A DNA stretch of 13,572 nucleotides, from the IMG/VR virus record IMGVR_UViG_2671181050_000011. One strand, 5' to 3'. Positions 3,782 to 10,723 of this stretch are shown in pieces. A program made the translations under genes and the position numbers. The stretch is from a virus. Its lineage: Duplodnaviria > Heunggongvirae > Uroviricota > Caudoviricetes. Below the pieces are notes generated by a model. It was not told the origin of the DNA. It saw only the letters and a list, made by a program, of their open reading frames with translations, and made no database searches. Numbering within the stretch: position 1 is the stretch's first letter; each line of letters opens with the position of its first letter.

Positions 3782-4480
3782 TTACTGCGAAAGTTTGTTA
3801 ATGGAAAGGAAGCCGCCAAAGTTGCCGACGTTATTGCGAAACTTACAGCCGCTCAGGCATTTGCTGCATTTATCCTTCGTGATATCGGACGTCGGCTGGT
3901 CATATTCATCCGCGACAGCCGGACCGTGATAACCGCACTCATCACCGCGATAGGTCCAGGTGCAGGTATTAGCCAGCATGATGCGCCCCGGAAAAACGGC
4001 ACCATCCGTTTCCGTCGGTGTGGAGAGCACAAAGGAGGCACTGACCGCGCTCAGTTCGCTGCACTGCTCGATGCGCCAGCGGCTGATCACCTCCTGCTCC
4101 GGATCGGCGTCACTGTTTCCGTTGACGAAGTTCACCGCATCCAGAAAACGGGCGTAAACCTTACGCCGGACCACCGTTCCGCCGACCAGACTCTGCAGAT
4201 CTTCCGCCATCCCGGTGACCATACCGTACAGGTTAGAAACCGTCAGCGTGGGGCGCGTACTGGTGCCTTTGCCATTCAGTTCAAAACCACTCCCCTGAAT
4301 GGGATACGGCTGATACTGTCGCCCCTGCCAGGTGACCGGCTCACCTTTTTCGTTCTGCTCATTACAGAAAAAATAACGTTCTCCACCAACCTCTGTCAGG
4401 TCGATTTCCCAGAGCACCACGCTGGCCGACTGCTCCGCACGGGTGCATTCATTCAGTGTTTCCTGCCGGATAACCAACAC
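3782..4480 (-). CDS. L: minor tail protein L (Cys-rich C-terminus), but native ATG start replaced by a deletion junction; frame now opens with GTG-TTG
   Basis: 232-codon ORF ...IRQETLNECTRAEQSASVVLWEIDLTEVGGERYFFCNEQ...GGFLSINKLSQ matches lambda gpL from codon 4 onward. The first codons read GTG TTG GTT where lambda has ATG CAG GAT, and no ribosome-binding site is evident upstream. Confidence 0.8.
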   Translation of the reverse strand: MLVIRQETLNECTRAEQSASVVLWEIDLTEVGGERYFFCNEQNEKGEPVTWQGRQYQPYPIQGSGFELNGKGTSTRPTLTVSNLYGMVTGMAEDLQSLVGGTVVRRKVYARFLDAVNFVNGNSDADPEQEVISRWRIEQCSELSAVSASFVLSTPTETDGAVFPGRIMLANTCTWTYRGDECGYHGPAVADEYDQPTSDITKDKCSKCLSGCKFRNNVGNFGGFLSINKLSQ

Positions 4481-4715
4481 GGGCAGACTTCACCACATTC
4501 ACCTCGCGGATGTAGTCGCTGCCCATCGCATTCATGATGGCCCGCTGAAAGGGCAGTGTTTCCCAGCGCCCTTCCTGGTATGCGGATTCTTTCGGGAGAT
4601 AGTAATTGGCATCCGCCCATTCAACGGCGGTCTGTGGCTCCGGCCTGAACAGTGAGCGAAGCCCGGCGCGGACAAAATGCCGCAGCCTGTTAACCTGACT
4701 GTTCGATATATTCAC
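4449..4715 (-). pseudogene. A: terminase large subunit A, N-terminal ~80 codons only, fused out of frame into the start of L
   Basis: GTG-initiated frame MNISNSQVNRLRHFVRAGLRSLFRPEPQTAVEWADANYYLPKESAYQEGRWETLPFQRAIMNAMGSDYIREVNVVKSARVGY matches the lambda gpA N-terminus as recalled, then diverges (PAGNTE*). It overlaps the Nu1 stop by 26 nt, as in lambda. Confidence 0.85.
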
Positions 4716-5235
4716 TCAGCAACCCCGGTATCAGTTCATCCAGCGCGGCTGCTTTGTTCATGGCTTTGATGATATCCCGTTTCAGGAAATCAACATGTCG
4801 GTTTTCCAGTTCCGGAAAACGCCGCTGCACCGACAGGGGGATCCCGTCGAGAATACTGGCAATTTCACCTGCGATCCGCGACAGCACGAAAGTACAGAAT
4901 GCGGTTTCCACCACTTCAGCGGAGTCTCTGGCATTTTTCAGCTCCTGTGCGTCGGCCTGCGCACGCGTAAGTCGATGGCGTTCGTACTCAATAGTCCCTG
5001 GCTGGAGATCTGTCTCGCTGGCCTGCCGCAGTTCTTCAACTTCCCGGCGCAGCTTTTCGTTCTCAATTTCAGCATCCCTTTCGGCATACCATTTTATGAC
5101 GGCGGCAGAATCATAAAGCACCTCATTACCCTTGCCACCGCCTCGCAGAACGGGCATTCCCTGTTCCTGCCAGTTCTGAATGGTACGGATACTCGCACCG
5201 AAAATGTCAGCCAGCTGCTTTTTGTTGACTTCCAT
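4690..5235 (-). CDS. nohA: terminase small subunit Nu1 (cosB-binding, winged-HTH N-terminus)
   Basis: 181-aa ORF MEVNKKQLADIFGASIRTIQNWQEQGMPVLRGGGKGNEVLYDSAAVIKWYAERD...LSEYIEQSG, essentially lambda Nu1 as recalled. ATG at 5235..5233, at the expected distance from the cos end. Confidence 0.92.
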   Translation of the reverse strand: MEVNKKQLADIFGASIRTIQNWQEQGMPVLRGGGKGNEVLYDSAAVIKWYAERDAEIENEKLRREVEELRQASETDLQPGTIEYERHRLTRAQADAQELKNARDSAEVVETAFCTFVLSRIAGEIASILDGIPLSVQRRFPELENRHVDFLKRDIIKAMNKAAALDELIPGLLSEYIEQSG

Positions 5236-5412
5236 TGTTCATTCCACGGACAAAAACAGAGAAAGGAAACGACAAAGGCCAAAAAGCCCGCTTTCAGCAC
5301 CTGTCGTTTCCTTTCTTTTCAGGGGGTATTTTAAATAAAAACATTAAGTTACGACGAAGAAGAACGGAAACACCTTAAACCGGAAAATTTTCATAAATAG
5401 CGAAAACCCGCG
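5236..5412 (-). promoter_or_regulatory. cosB-equivalent region (terminase/IHF binding sites between cosN and Nu1)
   Basis: The reverse complement is near-identical to the first ~190 nt of the lambda genome as I recall it (GGGCGGCGACCTCGCGGGTTTTCGCTATTTATGAAAATTTTCCGGTTTAAGG...). Individual R and I1 sites were not mapped. Confidence 0.6.
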
Positions 5413-5424
5413 AGGTCGCCGCCC
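5413..5424 (-). other. cosN: 12-nt cohesive-end sequence (minus strand GGGCGGCGACCT)
   Basis: The plus strand reads aggtcgccgccc; the reverse complement is GGGCGGCGACCT. It is flanked on one side by cgtaacctgtcggatcacc (reverse complement of the lambda right end ...GGTGATCCGACAGGTTACG), so both cos halves are contiguous as in an integrated or circularised genome. Confidence 0.85.
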
Positions 5425-5623
5425 CGTAACCTGTCGGATCACCGGAAAGGACCCGTAAAGTGATAATGATTATCATCTACATATCACAACGTGCGTGGAG
5501 GCCATCAAACCACGTCAAATAATCAATTATGACGCAGGTATCGTATTAATTGATCTGCATCAACTTAACGTAAAAACAACTTCAGACAATACAAATCAGC
5601 GACACTGAATACGGGGCAACCTC
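5425..5623 (-). other. lambda right-end non-coding region containing cosQ
   Basis: The reverse complement matches the terminal ~200 nt of lambda as recalled (...GATGATAATCATTATCACTTTACGGGTCCTTTCCGGTGATCCGACAGGTTACG). The exact cosQ element was not delimited. Confidence 0.6.
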
Positions 5624-5857
5624 ATGTCAACGAAGAACAGAACCCGCAGAACAACAACCCGCAACATCCGCTTTCCTAACCAAATGATTGAACAAATTAA
5701 CATCGCTCTTGAGCAAAAAGGGTCCGGGAATTTCTCAGCCTGGGTCATTGAAGCCTGCCGCCGGAGACTGTGCTCAGAAAAAAGAGTTTCTTCTGAAGCA
5801 AACAAAGAAAAGAGTGACATTACTGAATTGCTCAGAAAACAGGTCAGACCAGATTGA
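5624..5857 (+). CDS. ynfO: small basic protein with a possible ribbon-helix-helix-like N-terminal region (YnfO-like)
   Basis: 77-aa ORF MSTKNRTRRTTTRNIRFPNQMIEQINIALEQKGSGNFSAWVIEACRRRL..., ATG at 5624 with a weak GGGG Shine-Dalgarno 7 nt upstream. Position and orientation match K-12 Qin ynfO. The fold assignment is inference. Confidence 0.7.
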   Translation: MSTKNRTRRTTTRNIRFPNQMIEQINIALEQKGSGNFSAWVIEACRRRLCSEKRVSSEANKEKSDITELLRKQVRPD

Positions 5858-5914
5858 AGCAATTTAGATAATCGTGCAGACTACGCCCCCTCATATCACA
5901 TGGAAGGTTTATCT

Positions 5915-6325
5915 ATGGATCAGGTAGTCATTTTTAAACAAATATTTGATAAAGTTCGAAACGATTTAAACTATCAATGGTTTTATTCTGAGCTAAAACG
6001 TCACAATGTCTCACATTACATTTACTATTTAGCCACAGAGAATGTTCATATTGTATTAAAAAATGATAATACAGTGTTATTAAAGGGCCTAAAAAACATT
6101 GTGTCTGTCAAATTTTCAAAGGATAGGCATCTTATAGAAACGACCTCTAATAAGCTGAAATCCAGAGAGATCACATTTCAGGAATACAGAAGAAACCTTG
6201 CTAAAGCAGGAGTTTTTCGGTGGGTTACAAATATCCACGAACAAAAAAGATATTACTATACCTTTGATAATTCATTACTATTTACTGAAAGCATCCAGAA
6301 AACTACACAGATCTTACCACGCTAA
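5915..6325 (+). CDS. ydfO: uncharacterised prophage protein (YdfO-like, DUF1398 family as recalled)
   Basis: ORF 5900..6325; preferred start is the ATG at 5915 ([32 protein letters not shown]...), which has GGAAGG 7 nt upstream and gives 136 aa. AT-rich codon usage, unlike the tail genes. Confidence 0.75.
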
Positions 6326-6333
6326 ACCATAAC

Positions 6334-6362
6334 GTCCGGCTTCTCTCACTCCTGAGCCGGAC
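6334..6362. other. GC-rich inverted repeat (8-bp stem GTCCGGCT / AGCCGGAC, 13-nt loop) just after ydfO
   Basis: Perfect 8-bp inverted repeat seen directly. There is no clear U-tract, so its role (terminator, RNA stability element or protein site) is unresolved. Confidence 0.3.
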
Positions 6363-6476
6363 TGCATTGGTTTAATAAAAACCATCAACAATTGTGATTT
6401 AGATATTCGGAACCATTCAAATATAACAAAACCCCGTAAAAACGAGGTTTATGGATAAATTTTATTATTGAATACA

Positions 6477-6649
6477 TCAGATTAAATTAATCTTGACATC
6501 ATAGCTTTCAAGACCCGTCATTTTTTCCCGTGCGGTAAACTGAATACTGGTAACTTCTTTCCCGGTCTTTTTCTTAAGTTCAATAATTTTTTTGTTATAT
6601 ATTCAGAAATATCTGCTTCTGCTTTTGTTTTTAAGTTTTCAATATTCAT
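6477..6649 (-). pseudogene. gnsB: GnsB-like small protein gene interrupted by a 1-nt frameshift in an A7 homopolymer
   Basis: From ATG 6649 (AAGAGGA just upstream) the frame reads MNIENLKTKAEADISEYITKK, then shifts. The continuation IIELKKKTGKEVTSIQFTAREKMTGLESYDVKINLI* lies in the +1 frame after the A-run at 6587..6593. Both halves resemble GnsA/GnsB (MNIEELKKQAETEIADFIAQKIAELNKNTGKEVSEIRFTAREKMTGLESYDVKIKIM, from memory). Confidence 0.7.
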
Positions 6650-6820
6650 CATTTCCTCTTTTAGTCTGTTATGACTTTCCAGTTACACAGTAAGTCGATT
6701 ATATGGTGCAAACGTGTAAAAGATAAGATGAAACATCGCAATAATCAACATACGATAGTCTAAATTTTACACAAACAGACAAAGAGAATTTTCCTGAATT
6801 ATCAATGCAATAGCATCAAA

Positions 6821-7117: not shown

Positions 7118-7322
7118 TCATTTTCACTTTTTTAAATCCAACGACAGACGGCTGGCATTTAAGTATTGTGAAATATTATCAAATGTAATCATCATTGATT
7201 TACAAAAGATACATTTTGCCCCGAAAGGATTCATGTCAGAAACATCAAAAGATGATGTTCTATACTGGGAACCATGACAACACGGGCATCTAAAGTGAAT
7301 ATGGTTTGTAATATTGTCTACC

Positions 7323-7535
7323 TCAAAGCGCCACTACATGAACAGCGGCAGGACCTTTAGGTCCGTTCTCAATACCAAATTCAACTTCCTGATTCTCAGT
7401 TAATGTTTTGAAATCGTTGCTCTGAATTGCTGAGAAATGGACAAACACATCTTTGCTGCCATCTTTCGGCGTGATGAAACCAAAACCTTTTTCAGGGTTA
7501 AACCATTTCACTAAACCAGTCATTTTGTTAGACAT
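7323..7535 (-). CDS. cspI: cold-shock protein, CspA family (CspI-like)
   Basis: 70-aa [73 protein letters not shown] with RNP1-like (KGFGFI) and RNP2-like (VFVHF) motifs. ATG at 7535 preceded by AAAGGTAATAATT, resembling the cspA translation initiation region. Confidence 0.9.
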
Positions 7536-7898
7536 AATTATTACCTTTTGAAGAAATTAGCCCTTGGGCAGAATGGTCCGAAAAAAAAATATCAGAGAGA
7601 AAAACCAACAAGGAAATCTCAAGAGGTACAAATAATAAAATTATAACAATGACTGCTTCAGATAAATTTGTAACAAACCAGAACACCATTAACGCATGAT
7701 TAACCACCCATAGCAAGGATTACTTTTGTAAAGAAAAACACAGCAATGAAAGAATAGCTTTATTTATTAATAAAACGTGTCATTCTGATTAAGACCTTTT
7801 ATCTTACCCTTAAGATTTCAGGAATTTTGGCTCATGGAAGAGTCCTTTTTATTTAAATTTTACATTCCGCGATGTAAATGTTCCGATTTAATATTACC

Positions 7899-9926: not shown

Positions 9927-10207
9927 GAGATTGTGGTGCTTTTTGTGGGAGTCATCCACTTACGCACTTTGTTTTGCCATGCCAGCAGTTAGCTTCTGCT
10001 GTAAAACTATTCATGCAGCAAACCTGCACTTCACCACAATGGTTAGCATACTTTTCCTGATTAAGATTTTGCCAAATATGCTAGCCATTGTTTCATGTAT
10101 TGGACCTCCTTACTTTTTATTAAAGAGATCCAATATTCACTACTCTGTCCGTATCTCTACTCAGGCATCAGCCTTCTTCGTTATCGTATACAGACGAGCG
10201 ATGAATT

Positions 10208-10423
10208 TTAATCAGTAATGATGACATTTGCTGCTGCAGGACCTTTAGCACCACTCTCTATAGAGAAGGTAACCTTTTGACCTTCAAATAAGGTTCGATA
10301 ATTATCATTCTGAATCGCAGAAAAATGCACAAACACATCTTTACTACCATCAACAGGAGAAATAAAGCCGAAACCTTTATCAGCGTTAAACCATTTTACT
10401 AAACCAGTCATTTTATTTGACAT
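10208..10423 (-). CDS. cspB: cold-shock protein, CspA family (CspB-like)
   Basis: 71-aa [77 protein letters not shown] at 10423 with AAGGA 7 nt upstream. Divergent from cspF, as in K-12 Qin. Confidence 0.9.
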
Positions 10424-10723
10424 TCTACATTCCTTAACTTGAGCCTTTCGGCATAAATGGTTTGCATAACAGAAACGACTTCGTACTTAATTGGAGAGAC
10501 TCAAAGAAGGAATAAGTGAATAACACCTGAAATGAGAACTGCTTTAGTAAACTACTTCGTATATCGTCTGTTCTTCAAACCGACGCAATCATTAACGCAT
10601 AGTTGAACATATGAAGCAATGTTTATTTTAGACATCCAGCCATCTTCAACCCCATCAAAAAACTATAGCTTTCTTCAGGAACGTGTGTATAGTGTGCCAA
10701 GTTATCAGTATTAAGGAATTTTT

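Follow-up and report, generated by a model that had tools for sequence, protein, structure and literature searches.

The ynfO and ydfO genes of a Qin-like prophage as two probable independent units, a position-bound gene with a likely ribbon-helix-helix product and an optional cargo gene

Do two small genes that lie side by side between the cohesive-end site (cos) and the lysis cassette of a lambdoid prophage act as a pair, or are they separate units that merely adjoin? The question is raised by ynfO and ydfO in the virus record IMGVR_UViG_2671181050_000011 of IMG/VR, a 13,572 nt stretch of Caudoviricetes DNA that is referred to here as the window and represents a Qin-like defective lambdoid prophage of Escherichia coli. 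A previous sequence-only reading had interpreted the two genes as a regulator-effector module inserted in place of lambda sequence, possibly a toxin-antitoxin, superinfection-exclusion or anti-phage pair. Our comparisons favor instead, with moderate confidence, two independent units that are simply neighbors in Qin: a positional gene of the DUF3950 family with a product of likely ribbon-helix-helix (RHH) type and an optional cargo gene, ydfO, both belonging to the native right end of lambda-family phages.

Catalogues already list ynfO and ydfO as named K-12 genes in curated families, one of them with a solved structure; a literature search returned no paper giving YnfO or YdfO a mechanism. The region 5200-6700 matches many E. 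coli chromosomes at 99.9-100% identity, where RefSeq lists the terminase small subunit, ynfO (YlcI/YnfO family), ydfO (DUF1398) and a GnsA/GnsB-family gene in this order, and the names and the DUF1398 assignment of the earlier reading agree with RefSeq and Pfam. The basic 77-aa protein that it had quoted is encoded on the plus strand as described (17 Lys+Arg versus 9 Asp+Glu, isoelectric point 10.55), and the 136-aa ydfO product follows on the same strand after 57 nt (58 in that reading) with its own Shine-Dalgarno sequence. The open reading frame (ORF) list gives 141 aa at 5900-6325 for the latter; the real start is ATG 5915, preceded by the Shine-Dalgarno sequence GGAAGG (5903-5908), and the lambda equivalent of ATG 5900 is out of frame. 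The two genes are indeed AT-rich (GC content 44% in ynfO and 32% in ydfO, compared with 53% in Nu1 and 58% in the tail genes) and oriented against the Nu1/A, tail and lysis genes, all of which are on the minus strand.

Comparison by blastn with the lambda sequence in the phage DE3 record yielded two homology blocks. Window positions 4600-5786, covering Nu1, cos and ynfO codons 1-54, are 98.4% identical to lambda, and positions 5841-6344, covering the ydfO leader and gene, are 84% identical. The sole non-lambda stretch in the region consists of 54 unrelated bases, 5787-5840, at the position of which lambda and DLP12 hold ~610 bp with lambdap79/ybcW on the opposite strand. The lambda-derived sequence thus does not end at about 5623, as had been read, and since lambda itself carries homologues of both genes, the pair is native to the lambda right end and has replaced nothing.

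The lambda homologues are obscured by annotation. A 64-aa DUF3950 ORF of lambda, identical to YnfO over residues 1-49 (J02459 48139-48303, complement; locus L001 3525-3719), is unannotated in J02459 and NC_001416. The lambda reference annotation omits a conserved, selected gene here. The YdfO homologue of 136 aa (79% identity) is contained in lambdap78, which is annotated as 177 aa from a GTG (L001 4253-4786), and starts at an internal Met. Homologues begin at this Met, and the stretch 5′ of it is retained at the DNA level but interrupted by indels that break the frame; lambdap78 is probably over-extended in the annotation. These annotation gaps are a modest new point.

We then asked how often the two families occur together. 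In a Qin-biased sample of 80 IMG/VR loci, Nu1, cos, ynfO and ydfO stay together across two different downstream contexts. A broader scan, seeded on divergent DUF3950 proteins and searching for DUF1398 within 5 kb, found it at 17 of 80 diverse loci, all of E. coli Qin/lambda type, and at none of the other 63. Among 50,697 records of a phage collection, DUF3950 is present in 153 (~66 of them Shiga toxin (Stx)-converting phages) and DUF1398 in 43, essentially lambda and its close relatives. The Stx phage BP-4795, for example, carries Rz, ORF52 (DUF3950, opposite strand), ORF53, TerS and TerL with no DUF1398 gene, and phage 2H10 has a ynfO-like gene beside cos and Nu1 with no match to ydfO. None of the DUF3950 loci in phage-inducible chromosomal islands (PICIs) has a DUF1398 gene. 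Conversely, the DUF1398 gene ycgX of K-12 adjoins bluR and has no DUF3950 gene within 8 kb.

The host genomes give the same picture. Across 5,426 complete E. coli genomes, DUF3950 was found in 4,184 (9,861 places) and DUF1398 in 5,376 (8,903 places), and one O157:H7 genome contains seven DUF3950 places and one DUF1398 place. A species-level genome scan for DUF1398 returned lambda contamination for the most part, and few distant relatives. The co-occurrence check that the sequence-only reading had called for therefore goes against its module: each gene is widespread without the other, and in lambda and DLP12 an opposite-strand gene lies between them. We regard the module as unsupported in view of this independent occurrence, the intervening lambdap79/ybcW gene, the leader that ydfO possesses on its own and the lack of any toxin or defence match (see below). 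A predicted 233-aa protein with both DUF3950 and DUF1398 exists in Logan/ENA (P0122; 761 member sequences); it probably arose where draft assemblies read through, or shift frame within, the short spacer of Qin type.

YdfO matches DUF1398 (Pfam PF07166; E 1.5e-46, 157.7 bits, cut-off 22) and is identical in 135 of 136 residues to PDB 2hh8_A (E 9.5e-87), the nuclear magnetic resonance structure 2HH8 deposited as 'hypothetical protein ydfO'. With hydrophobic runs of at most 4 residues and no signal or membrane segment, the protein reads as soluble and cytoplasmic. Members of DUF1398 are labelled 'head protein' (via PHROG 413) or 'putative envelope protein' in records such as NC_001416 and NC_042057. 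We set these labels aside because YdfO has no hydrophobic segment and the lambda gene is non-essential, lambdap78 being dispensable for lytic growth as determined by CRISPR interference (PMC10695390). An internal duplication suspected in YdfO (..DNTVLL.. versus ..DNSLLF..) was also discarded, as its N- and C-terminal halves, compared by hhalign, matched at E 0.19.

A leader of ~75 nt with the invariant sequence CAGACCAGATTGAA is kept upstream of every DUF1398 gene examined. It is shared by the direct YdfO homologues lambdap78 and DLP12 ybcV (79%) and by ycgX, a paralogue that is partly similar to YdfO; all of them are of one family, with no difference in kind. In the window, the leader overlaps the last codons of ynfO and contains a PdhR-box-like palindrome, AACAGGTCAGACCAGAT (5840-5856), in which the ynfO stop codon falls. 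A PdhR site obtained by systematic evolution of ligands by exponential enrichment, AAcaGGTcagACCAgaT, equals window 5840-5856, and ybcV mRNA is 10-fold lower in a pdhR mutant (PMC7660256). Four Qin genes respond to DicC, including ydfO and excluding ynfO. Furthermore, ydfO is strongly induced by ionic liquid, and stress protection on overexpression has been cited for it (PMC4077768); the main text of Wang et al. 2010 does not mention ydfO. The promoter scan detected no consensus sigma-70 promoter in 5250-6750. An RNA element in the leader was considered and rejected (consensus fold -1.24 kcal/mol, no compensatory pairs, single-sequence z-score -0.27), and the only Rfam matches in the window are two cspA thermoregulators, none in the leader.

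In base composition and patchy presence, ydfO is a moron: its GC content is 32% against 53-58% in the flanks, and it is missing from at least 110 of the 153 DUF3950-bearing phage records. As to a promoter and terminator of its own, a conserved leader travels with the gene, a hairpin lies at 6429-6450 (terminator-like on the minus strand, possibly bidirectional), and no consensus sigma-70 site was found. Since the leader is present even without a DUF3950 gene, the distribution is independent, and ydfO responds to DicC and ionic liquid, we regard ydfO as a self-contained cassette in a variable slot rather than the effector half of a ynfO operon. As optional AT-rich cargo beside ynfO, it would answer host signals through its own leader with the PdhR-type box, independently of ynfO, from a promoter that we place there provisionally. 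Our best guess is that YdfO might act by binding a host partner under stress. Lambda offers a comparison in bor and lom, two morons for lysogenic conversion that run against the late operon in which they are embedded. Like bor, ydfO occupies the cos-to-lysis slot, is counter-oriented, AT-rich and variably present, and is dispensable for lytic growth; its promoter and terminator are putative. In contrast, Bor is an outer-membrane lipoprotein with a serum-resistance phenotype, whereas YdfO is predicted to be soluble and cytoplasmic and has no known phenotype of its own.

A dedicated local control of ydfO by YnfO in lambda-type phages, through the leader and its PdhR-like box, would make the pair a regulator with its cargo, not a toxin-antitoxin. 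RHH proteins often regulate adjacent genes. At every Qin-type locus, in both downstream contexts, ynfO and ydfO adjoin on one strand, and the ynfO stop codon lies within the palindromic box. This arrangement is nevertheless unlikely to reflect such control: the leader is also conserved at ycgX, with no DUF3950 gene within 8 kb; most DUF3950 genes have no DUF1398 gene nearby; a 610-bp segment with an opposite-strand gene separates ynfO and ydfO in lambda and DLP12; ydfO responds to DicC and ionic liquid with no reported response of ynfO; and the box matches the site of a host regulator, PdhR.

We now turn to YnfO, the positional unit. It belongs to DUF3950 (Pfam PF13132; E 2.7e-21, 75.6 bits, cut-off 25), NCBIfam NF041551 (YlcI_YnfO_N; 36.6 bits, cut-off 30) and PHROG 949 (E 6e-34), the last of which is without a functional assignment. 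DUF3950 is a narrow family, with only 118 representatives among 1.84 billion clustered proteins, and its named members come from Enterobacterales plus one Pasteurella element. The N-terminal 50 residues of YnfO are almost invariant within E. coli and are followed by at least six unrelated C-terminal tails, that of Qin being encoded by the mosaic joint and the ydfO leader. The consensus of the family alignment, [KR]-x-I-R-F-P-x-x-[LM]-[IL]-E-x-I ... N-F-S-A-W-V-x-[ED]-A-C, aligns without gaps to Arc (NLRWPREVLDLV...NGRSVNSEIYQRV) and Mnt (NIRFP, NLRWP and NFRMP); the Arc and Mnt sequences were confirmed against 1ARQ and 1MNT.

Profile and structure comparisons point to the same fold. In hhalign, the DUF3950 profile matched Arc+Mnt in this register with E 0.005 and a probability of only 7%. 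Other profile matches were weak: the CopG-family structure 9kkd (E 1.2), one member with Pfam RHH_6 (E 0.092) and CdbA (E 0.55). The Pfam Arc and RHH models gave no match above threshold for YnfO. AlphaFold, run on the monomer with a 57-sequence alignment, predicted an extended segment at residues 1-18, a helix at 19-32, a 4-residue loop and a helix from 37 (core predicted local distance difference test score 74-82). This protomer has the strand-helix-turn-helix topology of the RHH (Arc/MetJ) superfamily, in line with the earlier suggestion, which had named structure prediction as a check. In Foldseek against PDB, ~45 of the top 50 matches were RHH proteins, including NikR, StnY, ParD, Arc, MazE, MatP, HicB, NikA and KacA, every one with E >2. 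No single test is significant; the Arc/Mnt register, the AlphaFold topology and the top Foldseek matches, individually weak, agree, and we therefore consider an RHH fold of the YnfO core quite likely. This likely assignment is new for DUF3950.

Arc and Mnt of phage P22 (immI region) are among the closest known likenesses. They are small and encoded by a temperate phage, and the predicted YnfO core shares with them, free of gaps, the N-[IL]-R-[FW]-P strand, helix A, the G/N-x-S loop and helix B. Moreover, DUF3950 genes of satellites often adjoin antirepressors (Bro-N, AntA, Rha or ANT in 15 of 38 downstream neighbors). The differences are that YnfO has no statistically significant sequence match to them, that its basic N-terminal arm is long and its C-terminal tail variable, that its dimerisation and DNA binding are predictions, and that the DUF3950 gene and the antirepressor gene converge, whereas arc and ant share a transcript.

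Gene neighborhoods indicate that DUF3950 is tied to a position and not to a partner gene. In E. coli-type loci, the opposite strand upstream of the DUF3950 gene carries Phage_Nu1 at a distance of ~390 bp and then the GpA terminase; the divergent Nu1-ynfO spacer of the window is 388 bp and includes cosN. In HK97-type Stx phages, 41 bp separate the gene from the opening gene of the HNH/TerS/TerL module. A divergent clade (MATGxKNNKSxxKGIRFPHELIEEID...) occurs in PICI and capsid-forming PICI (cf-PICI) satellites in the order int, alpA, sometimes antA, the DUF3950 gene on the opposite strand, small ORFs, primase, capsid, protease and portal. P4/PICI-type primases are further opposite-strand neighbors, and at 38 of 51 dereplicated loci both neighbors (at least 90 aa) are on the opposite strand. 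Across all these contexts the DUF3950 gene converges with the module before it, namely the lysis genes in phages and alpA/antirepressor in PICI satellites. It diverges from the gene that opens the module after it: Nu1/A across cos in lambda and Qin, HNH/TerS/TerL in Stx phages, and small ORFs plus primase in PICIs. A repressor with divergent promoters has this layout. The positional rule, to which phages and satellites both conform, is new, as are the candidate operator arrays that go with it.

The spacers of the PICIs contain, directly upstream of the DUF3950 gene, three 12-bp GTG-N6-CAC boxes about two helical turns apart (20-34 bp), such as GTGTACCCCCAC in Klebsiella and GTGCACAAACAC in Proteus and another element. 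The box positions are kept between the Klebsiella and Proteus lineages, and the inner bases differ. The pattern GTGYRYNNNCAC occurs three times in a PICI locus of 12.2 kb, each time within the 68 bp upstream of the DUF3950 gene, with 0.65 expected by chance for a pattern that was defined after inspecting the data. Upstream of ynfO in the window, an imperfect inverted repeat, ATCAATTATGACG/CGTATTAATTGAT, spans 5522-5554, and a palindrome, TTGATCTGCATCAA (5550-5563), is unique in the window and conserved in all lambda-cos-type upstream regions, being not significant alone. In the diverged lambda-cos-type phage L219, both arms of the repeat change symmetrically, from ..GACG/CGTA.. to ..GGCG/CGCA.., which keeps the symmetry and hints that the repeat is functional. 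A single operator common to all DUF3950 contexts was rejected, because the lambda-cos-type and HK97-type upstream regions are unrelated.

The nearness to cos raises the possibility that YnfO is a packaging accessory that binds next to cos and acts on terminase access or on the cutting of cos, whether in the service of its own phage or directed at competing phages and satellites. Only 200 bp separate ynfO from cosN, and the gene stays linked to cos and Nu1 within sequence that is 98% identical to lambda; in Stx phages the distance to the HNH/TerS/TerL module is 41 bp, and one DUF3950 member, P0308, has a weak match to Terminase_2. We find this role improbable, because in PICI satellites the DUF3950 gene is beside the replication module and far from terminase genes. 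The function of lambda cos maps to cosQ, cosN and cosB, and this ORF is not known to be required. The apparent DUF3950-Terminase_2 fusion was not used as evidence, since the match is flagged as weak and the gene sits between primase and integrase, not beside terminase genes.

Returning to the two-unit reading, we propose that the YnfO core would be an Arc/Mnt-like RHH domain that dimerises and binds DNA. The protein would be made in the quiescent prophage or satellite and would occupy the repeats in the divergent spacer, thereby regulating its own gene and keeping the downstream module quiet. More tentatively, and with considerable doubt on our side, DUF3950 might constitute an unrecognised class of counter-transcribed, Arc-like RHH repressors, located at module boundaries in lambdoid phages and in Gram-negative PICIs and cf-PICIs, that bind arrays of palindromic boxes (GTG-N6-CAC in satellites) and silence the divergent operon in the quiescent state, this being replication in satellites and packaging in phages. 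Gram-negative PICIs have been described as under the control of the activator AlpA (bioRxiv 10.1101/2022.09.08.507074); if the proposal were true, DUF3950 would be the missing negative regulator of these elements, now explained by AlpA alone. The PICI arrangement resembles that of Stl in Staphylococcus aureus pathogenicity islands (SaPIs) and of lambda CI, in that the DUF3950 gene is the only counter-oriented gene and shares a ~180-bp divergent spacer containing three palindromic boxes with the replication operon. It differs in that the DUF3950 protein is far smaller (60-77 aa) and would have another fold; its repressor role is predicted. The positional rule suggests a direct experiment on PICI regulation.

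The idea of a joint module for type II toxin-antitoxin action, superinfection exclusion or anti-phage defence, in which YnfO would serve as RHH antitoxin or regulator and YdfO as the DUF1398 effector, fits the predicted fold of YnfO, as RHH antitoxins (ParD, RelB, MazE, CopG-like) are among its top Foldseek matches. It is otherwise very unlikely. Unlike those antitoxins, YnfO has no cognate toxin family downstream, no co-conservation with its neighbor and no overlap or coupling of reading frames. Neither YnfO nor YdfO matched a toxin family in Pfam, NCBIfam or PADLOC, and no family of PADLOC-DB 2.0 matched either protein at E up to 1. The downstream protein thus lacks the toxin family, and the genes lack the tight, co-inherited operon, of a type II system, and a toxin-antitoxin or defence function for the pair is not supported. 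The value of the check is that this tempting interpretation is removed; the finding as first written proved ordinary.

Finally, ynfO could be a chance ORF conserved through DNA constraint near cos, since it is unannotated in lambda (J02459, NC_001416) and the region is highly conserved as DNA, but this reading is effectively refuted by a nonsynonymous to synonymous substitution ratio (dN/dS) of 0.04-0.11 in the YnfO core at dS 0.7-1.5 between alleles, by homologues at 35-60% identity in entirely different DNA contexts of Enterobacterales and Pasteurella, and by the Pfam match far above threshold. The dN/dS of YdfO is 0.18-0.32, and both ORFs are real genes under purifying selection. The features of the locus are collected in Table 1.

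Table 1. Positions of ynfO, ydfO and associated features in the window, with the candidate operator arrays of PICI loci
Feature	Position	Strand	Basis and remarks
ynfO coding sequence	5624..5857	+	77 aa, YlcI/YnfO family, Pfam DUF3950; ORF list, Pfam, NCBIfam, RefSeq, dN/dS
YnfO conserved core, residues 1-50	5624..5773	+	Family alignment, AlphaFold, Foldseek, hhalign; proposed RHH DNA-binding domain
Parts of the core			Basic N-terminal arm; predicted ribbon strand NIRFP; helix A 19-32; NFS loop; helix B from 37
Qin-specific mosaic joint in ynfO 3′ part	5787..5840	+	blastn block boundaries; lambda ORFs; DLP12-type loci L244 and L245
DUF1398 cassette leader	5841..5914	+	Alignment with lambda, E. 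albertii and K-12 ycgX
ydfO coding sequence	5915..6325	+	136 aa, DUF1398; Pfam, PDB 2HH8, dN/dS
Candidate operator region upstream of ynfO (putative)	5522..5563	.	Repeat search
cosN cohesive-end sequence AGGTCGCCGCCC	5413..5424	.	Sequence; DE3 cos feature mapped by blastn offset
Nu1 terminase small subunit, divergent from ynfO, first gene of packaging module	4690..5235	-	ORF list, annotation
GC-rich hairpin between convergent ydfO and gnsB-like ORF	6429..6450	.	Terminator scan
GTG-N6-CAC arrays, candidate operators	L288 5916-5983; L290 5899-5933; L285 4592-4646		

The mosaic joint of Qin bears on a recent preprint (10.64898/2026.09.04.749371), in which lambdap79 is the trigger of the Vulcan NADase defence system and lambda-vir evades Vulcan by losing lambdap79, 'likely through recombination with the Qin prophage'. 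The joint at 5787-5840 is a lambdap79-less allele, whose lambda counterpart is L001 3688-4300. The flanking 98% and 84% blocks are what a recombination giving lambdap79 loss would need and thus fit this escape route. Going by the preprint, this segment of a cryptic prophage would be a reservoir for phage escape from Vulcan.

In the Pasteurella 'phage' Pmp7 (OR544138.1), a low-complexity 'transcriptional repressor' of 224 aa is annotated at 4435-5109 (-), antisense over the DUF3950 ORF at 4778-5032 (+); this coding sequence is probably spurious. The 10.7-kb record itself, with integrase, primase, TerS/TerL and HNH genes, looks like a PICI-type satellite. In addition, contigs of ~3.5 kb or 48.5 kb with 99.4-100% identity to the lambda right end are present in ~30 assemblies from unrelated taxa, for example CP136411.1 'Arcanobacterium hippocoleae plasmid unnamed1' (3566 bp), a 'Brevibacillus fluminis plasmid' and a 48.5-kb Shewanella contig. 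These look like deposited sequencing-control DNA, either the 3.6-kb nanopore amplicon or whole lambda, as do many noisy 3.5-kb ENA contigs among the protein matches. One paper counts YnfO/YlcI among Arcanobacterium hippocoleae genes.

The remainder of the window bears the marks of a defective prophage. Terminase A survives as an N-terminal remnant of 88 aa (4449-4715) directly next to gene L (3782-4480), indicating that the head genes and most tail-shaft genes have been deleted, and a J-like ORF (661-2427) seems to be truncated and rearranged distally. On the other side of the locus, the gnsB-like ORF convergent with ydfO (6518-6652, minus strand) is shortened to 44 aa. RefSeq labels this gene 'GnsA/GnsB family addiction module toxin', and it is the sole toxin-antitoxin-labelled gene nearby. 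The two cspA thermoregulators found by Rfam are full-length (7296-7682 and 10192-10584, both on the minus strand; 112 and 159 bits) and precede the prophage cold-shock genes cspI and cspB.

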